A stretch of 64,000 bases of DNA from contig CP145417.1 of NCBI GenBank assembly GCA_036867785.1, positions 558,001 to 622,000 of the forward strand. The letters are read 5' to 3'. Under the pieces are notes generated by a model that saw nothing but the letters and a program-made list of their open reading frames with translations, did not search any database and was not told where the DNA came from. Position numbers and translations under genes: made by a program. Positions 1,663 to 37,200 of the stretch are shown piece by piece; position 1 is the stretch's first letter, and each line of letters opens with the position of its first letter. This DNA comes from Plasmodiophora brassicae. Lineage: Eukaryota.

Positions 1663-1959
1663 ATGCCGCCGTCGCCTCAGCAGCAGGACGCCGCCGCCCG
1701 TTTTCGCGCTTTCAACGACATGGTCAATCGAATCCGGAAAGGCCAACCCATATCCGGCCACCTGCCCCACCAGTCATCACCGGCGAAAATCGTCCTTCTC
1801 CCTATACGGCAGCGGACCCCAACGCTGAACCGCACGCGCAGCGAGCCATCGGTCGCCGCGGGCACCCTGCGACAACGACCGCTGCCGACAAAATCACTGC
1901 TCAAAACTGCTGCCCTACTGAATGCGGGCAGATACCCTTTCCAGCCCAGCCGGAAATGA
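1663..1959 (+). CDS. Possible small hypothetical protein (5' end uncertain)
   Basis: 98-aa ORF filling the gap between two genes; no motif recognised. Confidence 0.25.
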   Translation: MPPSPQQQDAAARFRAFNDMVNRIRKGQPISGHLPHQSSPAKIVLLPIRQRTPTLNRTRSEPSVAAGTLRQRPLPTKSLLKTAALLNAGRYPFQPSRK

Positions 1960-2103: not shown

Positions 2104-3314
2104 ATGGCATCGGCAGCGGTCGTGGAGGCGGCAGCAGCGGCGATGCCGGCAGTGTCGGAGGGTGTCGCTCGGCATATCCCGGTCCTGGTGGACAAAGTCG
2201 CGAACGCGCTCTGCAGAGAGTTGCGAGGGGTGATGCCGGGTCAGCCGAAGACAATGGTCGATGCGACCGTCGGCCTTGGGGGCCATGCCGCGCACCTGTT
2301 GAGCGAGGTAATGACATCGTAGGGTTAGACCAGAGGTTGCCATTTACGCTGAAGATATAATAGTTGCCCTCGCTGACGTCGTATGTTGGGATCGACCGAG
2401 GTGAGGGGCCAACGGTTTCGCTTTCGTTGATTGCGGTTGAAGTTTTCACTGTAGATCCTGAAGCGCTGCGACTCTGTAGAGATTCGCTTTCCGAGAAATT
2501 CCCATCGTTTAGATTGGAGGTCTTCCTGGACGGCGAGAAACAGGTGCTGAACAGCGGGGTCACCGATCGACGGATCGTTCTCGTTCACAGCTGTTTCTCT
2601 GACATCCATCGAGCGCTGGAGGTGGCCGAAGTTGATCGCGCTGACTGCATGCTGTTCGATTTGGGCGTGTCGTCGTTTCAGCTGGACAGCCCGGTGCGCG
2701 GGTTCGGTTTCAAGAACAACGGTCCGCTGGACATGCGGATGGATCGCGAACATGGAGACCGTACGGCCTTGGAGCACATAGGCAAGCAGTCGATTGTGTC
2801 CCTGGCTAAGATCCTGAAAGAGTACGGCGAGGAGAGGTATGCCTTGCGCATTGCCAAGAACGTTGTCAACAGCTTCGCCAGAGGCGAACTGCACACCACG
2901 GCTGACCTTGAAAGGCTTGCTTGGTCGGCCTATCCGGCCAACCAGCGTCCTTCAAGGACCCCAGCCGCGATTCGAAAGTCTGGTGGCCCTGGCGCTCAAC
3001 CCATTCACCCGGCAACGAAGACGTTCCAGGCCATTCGTATCGCGATCAACAACGAACTAGATCAGATCCAGGACGTCCTCCTGGAGATCCCAAAGCTCAT
3101 GAACCAGCTGGGCCGCGTGGGAGTCATCTCGTTTCACAGCCTCGAGGATCGAATCGTGAAACGGATGTTCCAGGCATACGTCAGCAAGCGGCTCGGGAAC
3201 ATCATCACGCCAAAGCCACTGCAAGCCGGTCCCGATGAGATCGAACAGAACCCGCGATCTCGGAGCGCCAAGCTACGCGTCTTCGAGATCGAAATAGGAT
3301 CAGCATCCAAATGA
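2104..3314 (+). CDS. rsmH: rRNA small-subunit m4C methyltransferase RsmH/MraW (METTL15-like); introns 2308-2363, 2401-2454
   Basis: HIPVL, VDATVGLGGHA, GIDRD (after splicing), DLGVSSFQLD..RGF, GPLDMRMD, HPATKTFQAIRIAIN, ISFHSLEDRIVK, NPRSRSAKLR. Confidence 0.95.
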
Positions 3315-10412: not shown

Positions 10413-11047
10413 TCACGAAGGTGGTGACTGCCTGCGAGGCATGACCATCTGTACCGGAAACGTTTCTTTGTTGTTGTAGTTGTTGACGGATCGAGGAGAA
10501 ACTATCGGTGATGTGCATGATGGAGACAACGTAGTCAGGTCATGGAATACGACGGGAGCCATATCCGTTTGGAACGCCGAAGAGAGCAGCTTGCTGGCGA
10601 CCGCGTCTGTGTTCCTACCAGTTACGAGTCCCTACATGCCACTGGGTAAGGTCATTTCTGACAAATACAATGGCACCATCCTAAAAGCACCTGAATGTCC
10701 AGGAAACAGAATGCCGCCGCTGGTCCGATCATGAATGAAAGCCCAAGCAAGACAAAGGCCAATTCGGTTGCCTCTGTGGATCCGACCATACGCGGTCGGT
10801 AAACGTGCACCGTGGGCACAACGACAGCGAGCAGAATCGCGCCGACCATCCAGCTCGCTAGCACGATCCGAACGATGTGCTTCAGTCTCTTGCGACGCTC
10901 CACTTCCTGTTCGCCCTCGGCCGCCAGCGGCGCTCCCATAGAGCCCGCCTTCCTTGTTTCGTCCGAGATAGTACACGCTCTGCCGATCGTCTGTCCCCTC
11001 AAGTCCAGAAGTATCTCTGCTGCAGATTCCCCAACTGGCAACTGCAT
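10413..11047 (-). CDS. Hypothetical small membrane protein (about 2 TM); exon limits uncertain
   Basis: ORF 10652-11047 has two hydrophobic segments after RRKRLKH; a plausible downstream exon ends near 10413. Confidence 0.35.
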
Positions 11048-11156
11048 AAATCCATTTCAGCTGTTTCGCTGCAATCCCGTTGTGGAACGGAAGGAAGGAC
11101 AGCGTTGCACTTGAAGGGTCGCAACAATATTTTTTGTGCGGTTGGGCGTGTGGTCG

Positions 11157-14100
11157 ATGACGACGGCGGGTGCTGCAGAGAAACGCGTTCGCGAGGTCCT
11201 GCCGGCCGGCGTGAAGCCGGTGCATTACGAGCTGTGTCTGGAGCCGGATCTGGCGACATGCACGTTCAAGGGCACCTGCGCGGTGGTCGTGCTGGTGACG
11301 TCGGATACGAATACCGTTGTCATGAATGCGCATGAGCTGAAGGTTCAGTCTGTGACTGTCGACGCCTCGGGGATTACTGCCCAGTCGTTCCCTGTCGACG
11401 ATAAGCTTCAGACGCTGACGATCAAGTTCAACAAGCCGCTTCCGCATGGCAAATCCAAAATGTACACCTGATGCGTCTGGTCGGTTACTGGTTATCAACA
11501 GTTGATTCTGTTTCAGAAACATTGAGTACACGGGCATCCTGAACGACAAGATGTGTGGGTTTTATGCAAGCAAGTACGAAAAGGATGGTGTCCAGAAGAC
11601 CATGGCAGTGACTCAGTTTGAGGTACGTTGAACCGGGGTTCGATAATTTAATCTGAACGGATATGTAGGCCTGCGATGCGCGACGAGCACTTCCTTGCTG
11701 GGATGAGCCTAACCTAAAGGCGACGTTTGGTGTCAGCCTGATTGTCGACAAGGTTTTCTAATGTTCTCTTCTTGAGTTTGAAAATGTTGCTGACGGTATC
11801 CATGGTATAGGCATTGACTTCAGTCAGCAACATGCCCGAATCCTCTTGCACAGATGTCGGAGGCGGTAAAGTCAAGCGGACTTATGAGAACACGCCGATT
11901 ATGTCGACCTATCTGCTCGCATTTGTTATCGGCGAGTTTGATTCTCTGCACCAGGTTTGGTTTTAATGGATTTACACATCTTCCCTTCCTAATATTCCAT
12001 GTCAGACAACGCAAGATAAAGTCGCTGTTCGCGTTTTCACCCCAGTTGGTGCGAAGGCGCAAGGCGAGTTTGCATTAGAGGTCGCGGTTAAGTGTCTGGA
12101 CTTCTACAACAAGTATTTTGAAATTAAGTATCCGTTGCCGAAGGTTGGCCTTTCCCACACTTTCCAGAATTGATACTGACAGCACATGCAGCTGGACCTC
12201 CTTGCTATTCCAGATTTCTCTGCAGGTGCCATGGAAAAGGTACGCGTAATATTCGAGGCAATGTGACAATCCTAACAAACGTTGCTGTTCGATAGTCAGT
12301 GGAAGATTGCTGTACGTCTTGATGAAGCTCACTTGCTATCAGTTGGGGATGCGTAACGTATCGTTCGACTGCGTTACTCGTGGATCCTGCGAACTCGTCC
12401 ACGTCGACCAAACAGTGGGTAGCGCTAGTCGTCGCTCACGAGCTCGCACACCAGTGGTTTGGAAACGTAATGACGCCGTATGCTATTGGCGAATGATATG
12501 TCTCTGAACCAATGTCGCTTGACGCAGCTTGTCACAATGGATTGGTGGACCGATCTTTGGTTGAATGGTTAGCGGTGCACTTCCGAGAACGTACGCATCG
12601 TTTCATTTTCTGTGCAGAGGGATTCGCATCATGGGTTGAGTATCTCGCTGTTGACTACTTGTTCCCGGCATGGAAGATGTGGACACAGTTTATTTCGCAG
12701 GTGCAGATTGGCCGCCCGTTTACCCATCTGTTTGTGCGTTCTGACCAAATGTATAGGATATGTGCCGTGCACTTACCCTTGACGCCTTGTTGAGCTCGCA
12801 CCCAGTCGAAGTTCCCGTTTTCAAGGTGCTGCTTGCGTAGCGTCCTGATGCCGAATGTATAAGATGTTTCATGTAGGCTAGCGAGGTGGACGAGATCTTC
12901 GATCACATATCGTATTGCAAAGGCGGATCCATTATTCGTATGCTCGTCAATTACCTCGGAGAGGAAGCTTTTCGAAAGGGTATCATGTTAAGACGCTGGA
13001 AAATGCGCCAACTGATTAGCTGCCTTTCGCAGGAATGGTTTCGTACTTGAAGAAATTTGCTTACGGAAATGCCAGTACTAAAGACCTGTGGAATGCTCTT
13101 GGTGAGTCCTCCGGAAAGCCCGTTTCGTCTGTTATGGAGAAGTGGACGCAGACACAGGTCGGGTTTATGATGCATAAGTAATCCCGCGTTAAGCTGGATG
13201 GTGTCTTAGGGCTACCCTGTCGTGTACGTCGAGGAGGATGCTCAACACAAGGGTCATATTTTACTTCGCCAAGAGCGGTCAGTGGACTCTTTGCGTCCGA
13301 CAACACCCATTTAATGTGTGCAGATTCTTGGTCGATGGACCTGCAAAAGATTATGCTGACCAGACATGGCCCGTCCCAATAACGCAAGTAACAGGCCCTT
13401 CGACATCTGGTGCTCCTCCACCACTGCATCTCATGACAACGAAGACCTGTGGGTTCTTTGGCGTGTCCAAGGCTTTACTCTGACTGACAGCTTGGTAGGT
13501 TCATTGAAATGCGAAGTGAACGCGGTACCTTTCCTGAAACTTAACGCGAACCAGTGTGGTGTTTACCGTGTAAAATACTCTGCGCCGCTAATGGATAGGT
13601 TGATTGCTGCTATCAAGAATGGCCAACTTGATGTGCCTGCCGACAGGTACTCGCTCTTCCCTGTTACTAGGCAGTTATTGACCCGATAAACAGGCTGGGT
13701 ATTGAAAATGACGCCATTGCCCTTGCTCGCTGCGGGTTGGTCAGCACAAGCCAGGCAATGTCACTTCTGCTGTCGTACGTGAACGAAATGAACTTCACTG
13801 TTTGGGACGACATCGTCAAGAACAATTTGGGCGAAATGAAGTTGTACGTTCGGAATTGATTGCGTGTTCGCCATTTGCGAATGTAGACGTCGTTGACTAC
13901 TATTTCGTAGGCTTCTAATGCTCCATGAGTCCATTTACACCAAGTTTAAGCTGTTCGCTTGTGATGTACTCCGGAAAGTTGGCACCTCTGTCGGATGGGA
14001 TGCCAAACCGACAGACGATCACCTCACGTCTCTCCTGCGTAGCCTCGTCATTCCCAAGCTCGGTCTGTATGGATTTGGCAACATCAGCTGCTTAATTCTA

Positions 14101-14890
14101 ATCCAAGGTTCTAGGAAGTTACGGTGACCGCGACACGATTGCGGAAGCTTGTAAACGCTTCGATGCTTTTGTAGCGTCGGGCTTCAAGTCTGGATTAATT
14201 CCTGATCTCCGTACTGGGGTTTACAGTATCGTTCTTGCGGAGCGTGGCAAAGAAGCATACGACACGCTCTTGAAGCTCTATCGAACGACAACCTTCCAGG
14301 AAGAGAAGGTATTCCCGTAACTATTGGCGGTACTTGAGTGATAATGAGTGATCGTCAACGCAGGTGCGTGTCCTTTCTGCTCTCGGCAGCGCGAAGGACG
14401 AAAGCCTGCTTAAGGAGGCCCTCGCGTTCTGCTTCACCCCAGATGTTCGTAAACAGGTACGTTGAAGTTCAGTTATTCCACGGTTTAACAGCCGTTCCTG
14501 ACAGTTGATTCAGGATGTGATGTTTGTTCTTGGCGGTGTCTCGGTGAACCCGAAAGGAGTCGAGTTAGCCTGGAAGTGGCTACAAACGAACTGGGACACG
14601 ATCCGTGATAAGTTCTCCTCGGGCTTTACCTTGAGTCGCCTTGTATCGTACGCGACTAAGCATTTTACGTCTCGCGACAAGGCGAAGGAGGTAACCATAT
14701 ATGCTGTTAGATGACCGTCCCTCAAAGTAATTTTCGGCTTCTGCAGATTCAGGACTTCTTCGCCAAGAACGCAACACCTGGCGCGGAGCGGGCTGTTCAG
14801 CAAAGCGTCGAGACCATATTGTCTACCGCGACATGGCTGGAGCGCGATGCCGACGGAGTGAAAGCTTGGCTTGATGCCCGGTACGCTTAA
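11157..14890 (+). CDS. NPEPPS: Puromycin-sensitive aminopeptidase (peptidase M1), many short introns
   Basis: [61 protein letters not shown] (after splicing), [33 protein letters not shown]. Confidence 0.97.
12239..12342 (+). other. Putative [D1,2] stwintron: internal intron 12240-12295 inside the donor of a 48-nt external intron
   Basis: G|GTACGC..CTAAC..TAG|TCAGT: removing the internal intron creates donor GTCAGT; then GCTCAC..CAG. Two-step removal gives GAA AA|T TGG (E-N-W). Confidence 0.75.
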
Positions 14891-15347
14891 GTGCAATCCC
14901 CCGCCTCGTTGCCTCATATCACCGAAATCAAATGGTTTCAATACAGTTTTCGTGTTGTTTGATGCCAGCTTCTCCTTTCATTCATTCCGGTTAAGAGACC
15001 CCCAATGACTTGCACGCCTTCAGAGTACTGTTGACGTTGCGCGACTTGGTGGACACTGCAGGTCGGATCGATGAAGTTGGTCAGCGCATCACGAAGGAGG
15101 CGCCACACGCGGGTCGACGCGAGTCCGAGTCTGACTTCAGCGTCATATGTTTTGTGATGGGATCAGCCAAATGACGTCGGCGACGAGGCGCGCCATCGTA
15201 TCATGACGATTGGGCCGCACTCGACTGGACTTGAGATCCCGTATCAAATTGATGCGGCTACCAAACGGGATGTAGAGTACGTGTTGGTGCCGAGGTCGAT
15301 CTCAGCGACCTGCTCCGTCGCCTGCCGACACTTCCGAAGCGTACGCT

Positions 15348-34233: not shown

Positions 34234-37200
34234 ATGGGGATCTCGTGGTCGAGCGAATTCGACTACACAAAGGACTTGCTGGCCGATACTGTACTTCAGT
34301 CGGCGTGCATCGGACACGAACCCGGATGCGACCCGAACGTCAGAGAGCAACCGTTGCCGTGCTTTGCTCGCTCTCAAAGCAGCGCTGCTGGAACAGGAGT
34401 ATTCCAAAACGTATCGCGCTAAAAGCGCTGAGAAAGGCCTCCTGCGGTACGCCTTCGAAGGCACCAGCGAAGAATGCAGGACAATCTGGGACATTGCAAC
34501 GTTAGGCAACCGCCCCTGATGTCTCATCGAGCGTCTGATTCCATTAACAATAGGCGTGCTTCGAAACTATTCGCTGACAGGGAATAGTATGGCGCTGTGG
34601 CACGAGGACTGTTTGTCTCGAACGTGACGCTTTCTTTCAGCTTTGGTGTTCGCGTGGATGGCGTCTACAAGTGGCAGACGTACTCGCAAGTGTATCAGAA
34701 GGTAACATGTGTCATATCGTCTGGAAGTTCGTGACTGGCTCAGAAGATCTAGATGCTGGCGATTGGCGCCGCGTTGCGCTCCATGGGTTGCCAGCGGGGG
34801 TCGTCCATTGGCATCATGGCTCCGAATCGCCCCGAATGGGTCATCACCGCGTTTGGCGCCTACTCGCAGACACTGAGCGTTGTGGCGTTATGTAAGTCGC
34901 ACCAGAGCCTACATGTGGGGGGTCAGCTGAGGCCTAGTGAAGATTCGACGCTCGGTCCCAATGCCGTCGAGTACATTCTGAACCACGCCGAGCTGACAAT
35001 CCTGTTTGTCGCCAAGAAGCACCTGGTTGAAATTCTGCCGATCCTGTCGAAGACGAAGGTTCGGCATGTGGTCCAGTTCGATGTCGACAAGGAGGCGTAC
35101 GGCAACGTTAAGGACGCCGTCGATGCGAAAGACGTTGATGCAGCCCGCCAATCTGGGGTTGAACTTATTGGGTTCTCGACATTGATTCAGAAAGGTCGGC
35201 GACGATATCTGAGAGATGACGACGCTAACCTGAATGCGCCCGGAAGGAATCGCATCCGGGTTGCAGCCGGATGCGCCCGGGCCAGAGGACCTCGCGTACA
35301 TCATGTACACGAGTGGAACAACGGGGAACCCCAAAGGTGCCTGCTTAACACATGTCAACATCATCAGCACGGTGGCCGCCGTCGAGACCATCTTCAAACT
35401 GCTCGACAGCGACGTTCAGTAAGGCGGGAGCAGCCTTGTCGAACGCGGCACAGTCTGACAGCAGGTCAACCAGCTACTCGTTTCTGCCACTGGCACACAT
35501 CTTCGAAACAGGTATCGACGCGTACGTAAAGGGCCAGGTTAACCACTAACGCTCTGTGCGAGCAGATGTCCAGGTGCGGGGTCCCCCTGGTGTTTCCTGA
35601 AGGATGCGTGTTGAGAGTTCGGGACGCAGGTCGGAATGGCAATGCGCGGTGCACGAGTGGGCTTCTGGCAGGATGACATCAGGCAACTGGTTGAAGACCT
35701 GTGCGCCCTGCAACCGACCATCATGTTCGGTGTCCCTCGGGTATTCACGCGCATCTACCAGAAGGTTGGCGGTCTGGAACGGCTGCGTTGCATGTGTTTT
35801 GAGACGGACGAAGGTGTTCGCAGGCGTCGACACGAAATTCTGCCTTGTGCGGGCGCTGTTCCATCGAGCGTACGCTTACCAGGCTGATGCGCTTCGCAAA
35901 CGATACCCGCGAAGCGCACTCTACGACAACCTCGTCAGGACTGGTCCAATAGTATACGTCATGGATCTATTTACTTTTCAACTGTAGGTGTTCTCCAAGG
36001 CGGCGGCACAGGTTGGTCTCGGGAATTGCAGAATCATTGTCTCTGTACGTATCGAACGATTTTACATCGTGACGCTTTTATCATTTCAACCCAGGGTGCT
36101 GCACCGTTGCCGCCCTACCTATGTGAGTTCCTGAAGATTCTCTTCAATTGCCCAGTCCTTCAGGTACGTTTGGCCGTGTTCACGTCATCACACTGCCGCC
36201 CAGGCGGATTCAATTCGGCAGGGATATGGCATGACGGAGACAGCGGCGGCCGTAACAATATCGCTGCCGACGTGCCCTAACTTGGGACATGTGGGGCCAC
36301 CAGTCGCCTCCTCTGAACTACGTTTGAGATCTGTGCCGGAAATGAATTACAATGTAAGGCACTATCACGTCATCGTACGTTTGATCATGGCGACCTTAAC
36401 GAATTCCAGGTCACTGATGAACATCCGCGGGGAGAGATCCAGATGCGTGGCAGCAACATATTCAAAGGTATCGTTCCAAAGATGACGGCCGGTAAACGCG
36501 CTTATTCCCATTACCACGAATAGGTTACTTCAAGAACGAAGAGGCCACAGAGGGCGTCCTCAATGACGGGTGGATGAGCTCGGGCGATATCGGCCGTCTG
36601 AACCCGAACGGCACATTTTCCATCATCGGTGACGTCGTCTTCGTATGTCGCCTCCTACCGGCTGACATTTCGCTCCAGACCGAAAGAAGAACATATTCAA
36701 GTTGTCGCAAGGAGAGTCAGTATCCAATGCTAGTCGTTTCGAGAGGACAACCTCTAATGGACAGCGCTATCTAGATACGTCGCTGCAGAAATGGTCGAAG
36801 CCGCGTACGGCAAGTCGCCCATGGTGTCCCAGATCTGGATCTACGGGAACAGTTACAAGTCCTTCGTTGTGGGCGTAGTTGTCCCCAATTCCGAGCGTTT
36901 CATCGAAATAGGCCGATCCAAAGTAGGCTCAGGAAACAACCACCCCTGTGAGCTCCTACTAACAAAGGGACGCAACGTCTTGTAGGGCTGGTATACCGGG
37001 CCTGGCTTTACTGCCGACGGTTATCCAGAAGCATTCGCCAAGCTCTGGGACGAACACCTACCAGAACTGAAGCACGAGCTCATTGCTAGCCTTCGTGACT
37101 TCGAGGCCGACTTGAAAGGATTTGAAAAGGTTCGCGCCCTGGCCGGATGGCTGGTAGTTTCGCTCGCTGAAGTGCTGCCCAGGCGCGCGATTTCATTGTG

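Follow-up and report, generated by a model that had tools for sequence, protein, structure and literature searches.

The stretch of Plasmodiophora brassicae DNA analyzed here (64 kb, called the window) carries a gene for an M1 aminopeptidase of the puromycin-sensitive type, the features of which are collected in Table 1. Its host is the clubroot parasite, a member of the Rhizaria, which puts a name to the non-fungal protist that a first-pass annotation, made from the letters alone, had supposed. Public model P0124 matches the Pfam families Peptidase_M1_N, Peptidase_M1 (PF01433, E 6e-85), and ERAP1_C, and the first exon matches P0003 from Plasmodiophora brassicae with 100% identity. In our gene model, 15 joints were taken from joins in the X15 and X16 contigs and the remaining 5 from contig pieces, GT..AG ends, and the reading frame. 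The spliced model carries GAMENWG and the zinc motif, as expected of an M1 aminopeptidase (gluzincin), whose hallmarks we take to be the GAMEN exopeptidase motif and the HEXXH-X18-E zinc motif. Exon 7 corresponds to positions 42 to 83 of the Pfam Peptidase_M1 profile (E 7.8e-16).

Apart from the sequence discussed below, the gene has 19 introns, all of them GT..AG and 46 to 67 nt long (mean 53.2, sd 5.3), with CAG as the acceptor in 10 and TAG in 9. Their donors are weakly conserved beyond GT: position -1 is G in 15, T in 3, and C in 1, and position +5 is G in 10/19. The sample of 86 P. brassicae introns summarized in PMC2483917 has a mean length of 55.66 and an sd of 7.01. Such short and narrowly distributed sizes suggest that splice sites are paired by intron definition in this host.

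Table 1. Features of the aminopeptidase gene around the GAMEN motif, in window positions
Feature	Position	Strand	Description
M1 (puromycin-sensitive-type) aminopeptidase coding region	11157..14890	+	21 exons, 20 intervening sequences, 872 aa
Exon 6	12192..12238	+	ends ...GGT GCC ATG GAA AA (GAME, then two bases of the codon for Asn)
Single G	12239	+	-1 of internal donor; would become G1 of external donor after the first splice
Proposed internal intron, 56 nt	12240..12295	+	donor aag|GTACGC, acceptor TAG at 12293-12295
CTAAC, branch-site candidate of internal intron	12272..12276	+	A12275, 20 nt before acceptor G
Proposed external-intron remainder	12296..12342	+	48-nt intron when joined to G12239; GTCAGT as donor, CAG (12340-12342) as acceptor
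CAG then T, alternative internal acceptor	12297..12299	+	would give internal 60 nt, external 44 nt, donor GTGGAA
TTGAT, second external branch-site candidate	12319..12323	+	20 nt before CAG 12342
CTCAC, branch-site candidate of external intron	12328..12332	+	A12331, 11 nt before end
Exon 7	12343..12466	+	starts T TGG GGA (completes Asn, then WG); contains HELAH zinc motif

The mature junction in RNA-derived contigs

Contigs from two studies, X15 and X16, join position 12238 directly to 12343 (GAAAA^TTGGGG), the mature junction predicted by the first-pass annotation, skipping 104 nt that end in GG..AG with zero positional ambiguity; an mRNA without 12239-12342 encodes GAMENWG. The RNA label of X15 and X16 is itself a guess, and the contigs come from spliced RNA because 14 other listed introns are also joined across, all of them GT..AG with 46 to 61 nt skipped. 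Between 12141 and 13690, the X15 contig has, by its record coordinates, exactly the length obtained by adding up the exons of our model (932 nt); therefore, exactly 104 nt are absent and nothing is inserted. Only the junction 12238|12343 aligns without gaps with relatives P0004 and P0005 across GAMENWGC[V/I] and 11 further residues. It also keeps the Pfam profile continuous, exon 5 ending at profile position 25, exon 6 supplying 16 residues, and exon 7 starting from 42.

No contig of X15 or X16 covers any part of 12239-12342, and the depth in the bin 12159-12309 is what its 49 exon letters would give at the contig depth. An intermediate, a mis-splice with an extra G, and the dead-end joint 12294|12343 are all absent from these contigs, which drop rare variants and so are uninformative about them either way.

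Other ways of removing the sequence were rejected. A single step from GT at 12240 to AG at 12342 shifts the frame, and if 12240-12295 is removed alone, reading on leads to a stop codon. Minor (U12-type) introns begin with an extended RTATCCTT-like donor, which the 5' end of the intervening sequence, GGTACGCG, does not resemble.

Two proposed nested units within the intervening sequence

The layout around the GAMEN codons, from the GAA AA exon end and GG start through the GTACGC, CTAAC, TAG, and CAG signals to the resumption at T TGG GGA, is as first described. For a two-step route using only GT..AG units, the internal intron must start at 12240 and end in an AG followed by T, which leaves exactly two ends of plausible length, 12295 and 12299. 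The internal donor has the gene's commonest donor base at -2, -1, +3, +4, +5, and +6, and the three variants of the divergent DNA contig X8 within this unit (12246, 12279, and 12288) all fall outside its donor, branch, and acceptor motifs. Given how weakly the gene's donors are conserved past GT, however, agreement of GTACGC or GTCAGT with a consensus carries little weight. The external 48-nt intron exists only after G12239 has been joined to T12296, where TCAGTGGA begins. The 56- and 48-nt units each differ from the mean intron length by no more than about 1 sd, and their lengths and signals are typical of the species. The -1 base of the external donor would be A, found in 0/19 of the other donors.

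The hexamer GTCAGT is a used donor at 13278 of the same gene and also occurs, as reported, at 36716. The first-pass annotation gave weight to a donor sequence shared with 13278, and the 9-mer GTCAGTGGA does exist there as part of a used donor; its recurrence carries no statistical weight, with 2 matches against 0.6 expected and 10/100 shuffles reaching 2 (not significant). The present example stands alone: sister copies of the whole sequence or of the internal or external unit were not found in the 64-kb window by blastn-short, which returned only 8- to 16-nt matches, the best off-target ones being 12 to 16 nt long (E 0.12 to 0.29). The 104 nt fold with -22.6 kcal/mol (z = 0.17; 105/200 shuffles fold as well) and form no near-terminal stem.

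We conclude that 12239-12342 in this aminopeptidase gene is very probably a [D1,2] stwintron, with one intron nested in the split donor of another, and from the end product we strongly infer a route of two consecutive splicing steps. In the first step, the spliceosome would recognize 12240-12295 (aag|GTACGC, CTAAC, TAG) by intron definition as the transcript emerges and remove this unit. G12239 would thereby be joined to T12296, creating a GTCAGT donor that the unspliced transcript lacks at the exon border. In the second step, the 48-nt intron would be removed using CTCAC (or TTGAT) and CAG 12342, joining GAA AA to T TGG GGA. The order would matter. Positions 12295-12342 also make up a GT..AG unit, which shares one G with the internal acceptor; excising this unit first would fuse A12294 to T12343 and deprive the upstream unit of its acceptor. 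Only the donor-first order would give the correct mRNA because the base after the stwintron is T12343 and not G.

Alternative explanations

That the GG is a sequencing or assembly artefact, the genome having one G and hence an ordinary 103-nt GT..AG intron, is extremely improbable. Homopolymer-type errors are common in assemblies, and X1 to X7 were flagged as possible sources of the sequenced DNA and hence are not independent. However, the DNA contigs that span the site and carry the G12239 missing from mRNA include not only the identical X1 but also X8 from a divergent strain, which differs at 61 positions in 4501 nt and crosses the site without an indel; the only indels listed for spanning contigs are at 11029, 15169, and 15233, none of them at GG. 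Moreover, in each of the three public protein models, P0003 and P0124 among them, ...GAMEK is followed by V or S, that is, AAG then G (AAG GTA); P0124 comes from a different strain and carries the 12246 variant as Ile. The claim of GG at 12239-12240 is thus borne out by an independent DNA contig (X8) and implied by three public models. These models are themselves wrong at the GAMEN junction in 3/3 cases: P0003 evades the stop by an additional intron without support from the RNA contigs, and P0123 and P0124 use an in-frame intron, contradicted by the RNA contigs, that adds 14 residues and drops the Asn.

If the GG is real, the sequence could instead leave in one step as a non-canonical GG..AG intron, cleaved before G12239 with the downstream branch site and CAG 12342, and the internal unit would be a coincidence. 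The final junction is the sole product seen, and the loose donor positions +3 to +6 in this gene could mean relaxed recognition of 5' sites. Chance alone seldom produces the nested pattern, although less seldom with GGT given: it arose in 742/20000 shuffles of the interior (3.7%), in 2442/20000 (12%) when GGT was kept, and in 2/427 GG..AG stretches of 104 nt across the 64-kb window. Nevertheless, one-step removal is quite unlikely, since U at +2 is near-invariant for the U2-type spliceosome and GT opens each of the 19 other introns of the gene, and since, as one unit, 104 nt would lie 9.5 sd above the mean of these 19 introns and 6.9 sd above that of the published sample, with a second complete set of signals inside. 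A canonical aag|GT lies one base downstream and would compete; paired with the distal acceptor, it would leave an extra G and a frameshift, yet the in-frame form was assembled in both X15 and X16. A closer rival keeps the nesting and moves the internal acceptor to CAG 12299, so that the internal intron has 60 nt and the external one, G12239 plus 12300-12342, has 44 nt and the donor GTGGAA. Here the CAG|T at 12297-12300 likewise supplies G+T and the mRNA would be the same; the CAG, at a distance of 24 nt from the branch A, satisfies the length and branch filters equally and is of the kind used by 10 of the 19 other introns, against 9 with TAG. We consider this variant unlikely, since TAG 12295 is the first AG past the branch site, a 44-nt external unit would be shorter than the shortest of the 19 other introns (46), and GTGGAA has A at +5, where 10/19 donors have G. 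The first-pass annotation named only the internal acceptor at 12295, and the less likely CAG 12299 has to be set beside it.

Origin of the proposed nested intron

Searching metagenomes for the pattern PDFxxGAME followed by AAGK gave 10 loci, among which are four distinct M1 genes (L001; L004, identical to L006 and L007; L008; and L010) with a protein identity of 30 to 44% to the P. brassicae enzyme. Each of the four has a single GT..AG intron of 60 to 114 nt exactly at GAR AA|..|Y TGG GG. L002, L003, and L009 were unrelated pattern matches, L005 was an intronless GAMEKWG reading with stops, and no GG-type case in an M1 gene was found among the 10 loci. Comparison of these sequences suggests that the intron position in P. 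brassicae may share ancestry with that of the metagenomic M1 genes. Because M1 genes of distant eukaryotes have an ordinary intron at this very codon position, the stwintron points to an intron gain inside an older donor, the new intron having probably entered between G1 and T2 of the older intron. Taken together, it is likely that this rhizarian sequence is a genuine [D1,2] stwintron removed in two steps, the first known outside fungi, and that it was formed by intron gain between G1 and U2 of an older donor at a position shared with distant eukaryotes.

Comparison with known systems

Recursive splicing, intrasplicing, and nested splicing in animals involve kilobase introns in which a whole donor is regenerated downstream of the junction. 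They share with the case here that one intervening sequence is removed in several steps and that the first of these recreates a 5' splice site; in contrast, the P. brassicae sequence totals 104 nt, and its donor would be built from one base on each side.

The closest counterparts are the [D1,2] stwintrons of ascomycetes (Aspergillus, Hypoxylon/Xylariales, and others), whose apparent ends, as described in PMC12403724 and PMC5639578, are likewise 5'-GG...AG-3'. In the cases these sources describe, as here, an internal U2-type intron begins at the second base, a U follows the internal acceptor so that G1 and U2 form the external donor, the units are of normal size for a species with short introns (intron definition), and automatic annotation fails at the site. 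The mechanism is described as established in fungi, with intermediates detected there (PMC12403724), whereas here the end product alone was seen and the host is a rhizarian protist. Also unlike the ascomycete stwintrons described there, the P. brassicae sequence has no sister copies within 64 kb and no near-terminal stem.

Two other fungal cases described in PMC5639578 bear on origin. The bioDA [D2,3] stwintron of Pezizomycotina sits where non-Dikarya have a standard intron, and a lipase [D1,2] stwintron is said to have arisen within a pre-existing intron. Both resemble the present case in that a complex intron occupies the position of one ordinary intron elsewhere, which suggests that a new intron was inserted into an older one. 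However, the split here is between donor bases 1 and 2, compared with 2 and 3 in bioDA, and the gene and supergroup differ. In the alternatively spliced [D1,2]/[A2,3] stwintron described for the alternative oxidase gene of Helminthosporium solani (PMC5639578; PMC5587772), two GT..AG units have the G of AG|T in common, so that two orders of removal can be imagined, as in P. brassicae, but the second route, or rescue, in such fungal stwintrons needs a G right after the stwintron, where P. brassicae has T12343.

Significance

In the literature searched, stwintrons were described from fungi only, apart from passing mentions, and a search for nested introns together with Rhizaria or Plasmodiophora found no paper combining both. 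The case here would place a known intron class in a new eukaryotic supergroup, the Rhizaria. Stwintrons offer a window on intron gain and splice-site pairing that has so far been confined to fungi; if the reading is true, the rhizarian case shows that the arrangement is independent of fungal biology and that donor-split nested introns arise as a general outcome of splicing by intron definition. With an ordinary intron at the same codon position elsewhere, its history is readable, and it can illustrate how one intron is gained within another.

A scan of the window for G|GT..AG|T..AG returned 60 motif matches, 50 of which passed an open-frame filter that chose the wrong frame for the true case. 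If the reading is true, Plasmodiophora and other protists with short introns should harbor a hidden class of such introns, mis-modelled by every gene finder. Gene finders that admit only GT..AG silently damage proteins at such sites, here in the catalytic GAMEN motif, and searching RNA data for GG..AG junctions of double length could repair annotations in the clubroot crop pathogen and its relatives.

The mature mRNA and its product

Four runs were compared, two of them DNA (X1 and X8) and two, X15 and X16, from separate studies and provisionally taken for RNA. No intron of the aminopeptidase gene is present in the contigs of X15 and X16, so their source is spliced RNA. In both, 12238 abuts 12343, with 104 nt skipped, GG..AG ends and zero letters that could be assigned to either side, and this is the mature junction that the first-pass annotation had predicted. 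The 14 other listed joints are all GT..AG and skip 46 to 61 nt. In the X15 contig, window positions 12141 and 13690 lie at contig positions 3192 and 4123, and the ten model exons between them sum to 932 nt, a base-exact fit indicating that exactly 104 nt are absent, with no insertion. The RNA contigs show zero differences from the window exons and hence stem from a strain like that of the window. Around the start of the gene (window 10800-11461), the 10.6-kb X15 contig continues unbroken across the upstream flank into exon 1, and a minus-strand X16 contig ends at 11061; neighbouring transcripts adjoin or overlap in this compact genome.

The gene model, built from 15 RNA-supported joints and five introns deduced from contig pieces, GT..AG ends and reading frame, covers 11157-14890 in 21 exons, and its 872-aa frame is open only with exactly 12239-12342 removed. 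It encodes a puromycin-sensitive-type M1 aminopeptidase, with Peptidase_M1_N, Peptidase_M1 and ERAP1_C found by Pfam on the public model and puromycin-sensitive aminopeptidases as the best named homologues among 120 listed (7995 of 8000 scored candidates at E<=1e-50). Exon 5 ends at Peptidase_M1 profile position 25 and exon 7 by itself matches positions 42-83 (E 7.8e-16), leaving between them a gap that exon 6, with its 16 residues, fills exactly. The exon 1 protein is 100% identical to an NCBI-named Plasmodiophora brassicae protein, and the whole model agrees with the P. brassicae protein at 833 of 851 aligned positions. Since this plasmodiophorid is described as belonging to Rhizaria (PMC4471660), the host is a non-fungal protist, as had been assumed. 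At 67 nt, 13844-13910 is longer than any other ordinary intron of the gene; its ends come from contig pieces and reading frame, its joint being among the five not listed from contigs, and it holds an unused earlier TAG at 13884-13886.

Sequence features at the split GAMEN motif and at a matching metagenome locus
Feature	Position	Strand	Kind
Exon 6 end, ...GGT GCC ATG GAA AA	last base 12238	+	sequence
G12239, then G12240-TACGC		+	sequence
CTAAC	12272-12276	+	branch motif
TAG	12293-12295	+	internal acceptor
TCAGTGGA	from 12296	+	sequence
CTCAC	12328-12332	+	sequence
CAG	12340-12342	+	sequence
Next exon, T TGG GGA	from 12343	+	sequence
L001, intron-bearing M1 locus	1794-1873		metagenome contig

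Probable consecutive splicing of two nested introns

The layout described by the first-pass annotation is borne out by the sequence (see the table). Read through unspliced, exon 6 runs into ...AGAMEK, and the downstream aminopeptidase frame starts at 12344. A single cut from GT 12240 to AG 12342 leaves one G in excess and shifts the frame, as had also been pointed out. If both steps are GT..AG, the observed mRNA allows only one kind of two-step route: the first intron would have to start at 12240 and have a T directly after its terminal AG, a new GT then being formed by G12239 and that T. Acceptors at 12295 (56+48 nt) and at 12299 (60+44 nt) are the two that yield plausible sizes. Within the nested model, 12295 is roughly four times as likely and is preferred because it is the first AG past the branch motif CTAAC (20 nt), because the resulting donor GTCAGT has the G at +5 that 10 of the gene's 19 donors share, and because both units stay within the observed intron size range. 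At positions -2, -1 and +3 to +6, the internal donor aag/GTACGC agrees with the most frequent base among the gene's donors.

An assembly error at the GG is very unlikely. The X1 contig is identical to the window but is possibly its source, hence not independent. X8, however, represents a different strain (61 differences in 4501 nt), and its contig crosses the 12239-12240 region with its sole listed indels at 11029, 15169 and 15233. Moreover, three public P. brassicae protein models of the gene (P0003, P0123 and P0124) all continue from GAMEK into V or S, which corresponds to AAG and then G. P0124 has Ile where the window encodes Val, corresponding to a 12246 G>A variant also present in X8, and must therefore derive from another strain's assembly. 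The first-pass reading of GG is thus upheld by a divergent strain and by three models.

The remaining arguments concern size and chance. The 19 other introns of the gene, all of which obey the GT rule, range from 46 to 67 nt (mean 53.2, sd 5.3), placing 104 nt at +9.5 sd; published P. brassicae introns average 55.66 nt (sd 7.01, n=86; PMC2483917), and the genome paper puts introns at ~60 bp (PMC4471660). The size argument for two units is strong. The nested pattern arose in 742 of 20,000 interior shuffles (3.7%), in 2442 of 20,000 (12%) with GGT kept, and in 2 of 427 window GG..AG stretches of 104 nt. Although size and chance rate each carry moderate weight when taken singly, their combination with the strict GT of 19 introns makes consecutive splicing much the best reading, and probably the right one. 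Junction, GG, sizes and signals thus support the nested-intron interpretation of the first-pass annotation, and we strongly infer the two-step mechanism. At the sequence level, 12239-12342 has every feature by which [D1,2] stwintrons are defined in ascomycetes (PMC12403724), in which an internal intron lies between G1 and T2 of the external donor.

A constraint on the order of removal, absent from the first-pass annotation, follows from the overlap of the two units. In the primary transcript, 12295-12342 is already a complete GT..AG unit that overlaps the internal acceptor by one G, GTCAGTGGA being contiguous at 12295 in the genomic sequence. Cutting it first would join A12294 to T12343 and leave the upstream unit without an acceptor. 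In fungal [D1,2]/[A2,3] cases described in PMC5639578, the second order works too, the base after the stwintron being G, whereas in P. brassicae it is T, which would make the upstream-first order obligatory. Such an order would fit co-transcriptional splicing, and wrong-order removal predicts a minor dead-end RNA.

Consequences for annotation

None of the three public models carries the RNA-supported junction, and all three are wrong there. P0003 (853 aa) excises the internal intron and, after SVEDCS, jumps to LVVAHE, losing 28 conserved residues. P0123 (887 aa) and P0124 (885 aa) extend into intron sequence and use an invented in-frame GT..AG, with 14 foreign residues replacing the Asn of GAMEN. 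The donor taken by P0003 is GTACGT at 12313-12318, inside the external intron and 30 nt from its end; this hexamer is the donor of three other introns in the gene and may act as a decoy.

Origin and comparison with fungal stwintrons

Searching for metagenome contigs in which PDFxxGAME precedes AAG and then G or T, we found 10 loci, 7 of them M1 genes and none a GG case in an M1 gene. Six of the seven, representing four distinct sequences (L001; L004=L006=L007; L008; L010), have one GT..AG intron of 60-114 nt at GAR AA/intron/Y TGG GG, the same place and phase (phase 2, in the GAMEN Asn codon) as in P. brassicae. These four sequences share 30-44% protein identity with the Plasmodiophora enzyme, and their nearest named relatives, among the matches found, vary by locus. 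Another locus, L005, has an intronless GAMEKWG reading with in-frame stops and is possibly a pseudogene. An ordinary intron at the identical codon position in distant eukaryotes indicates that the external intron position is shared, be it through ancient origin or through repeated gain. The most economical history has a new intron arising inside the donor of an older one, between G1 and T2, a path also proposed for fungi (PMC12403724; PMC5639578).

In contrast to the repeated "sister" stwintrons of Xylariales, the P. brassicae case has no similar copy of the 104-nt unit within the 64-kb window and, by folding, no near-terminal stem in the 104 nt. In the literature searched, which lacks most subscription journals, "stwintron" refers to fungi or appears in passing mention, and no paper brings Rhizaria or Plasmodiophora together with nested-intron terms. 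Multi-step splicing of other kinds (recursive splicing, intrasplicing, nested splicing) is described there from long animal introns and yeasts. Within this literature, no donor-split nested intron outside fungi is in print, and the P. brassicae case is a clean, RNA-backed first one, in a new supergroup, of a mechanism already known in fungi; its origin can be read from it, and the lesson for annotation is immediate.

Other observations in the window

At the 3' end of the gene (window 14880-14995), P0003 and P0123 end in ...DARFRVV, requiring an additional intron starting near GTACGC 14883, and P0124 and the present model end in ...DARYA with a stop at 14888-14890. The short ending is favoured by the contigs of X15 and X16, which are unbroken over 14745-15300. 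Elsewhere, GTCAGT at 36716 is followed by CTAAT and by a TAG ~58 nt on from the GTCAGT, so that 36716-36773 looks like another short candidate intron. Finally, a large inverted duplication (55526-58407 / 59300-62180), with arms of 684 nt at 96% and 1723 nt at 84% complementarity and further pieces reaching the window end, probably represents diverged gene copies, head-to-head or tail-to-tail.
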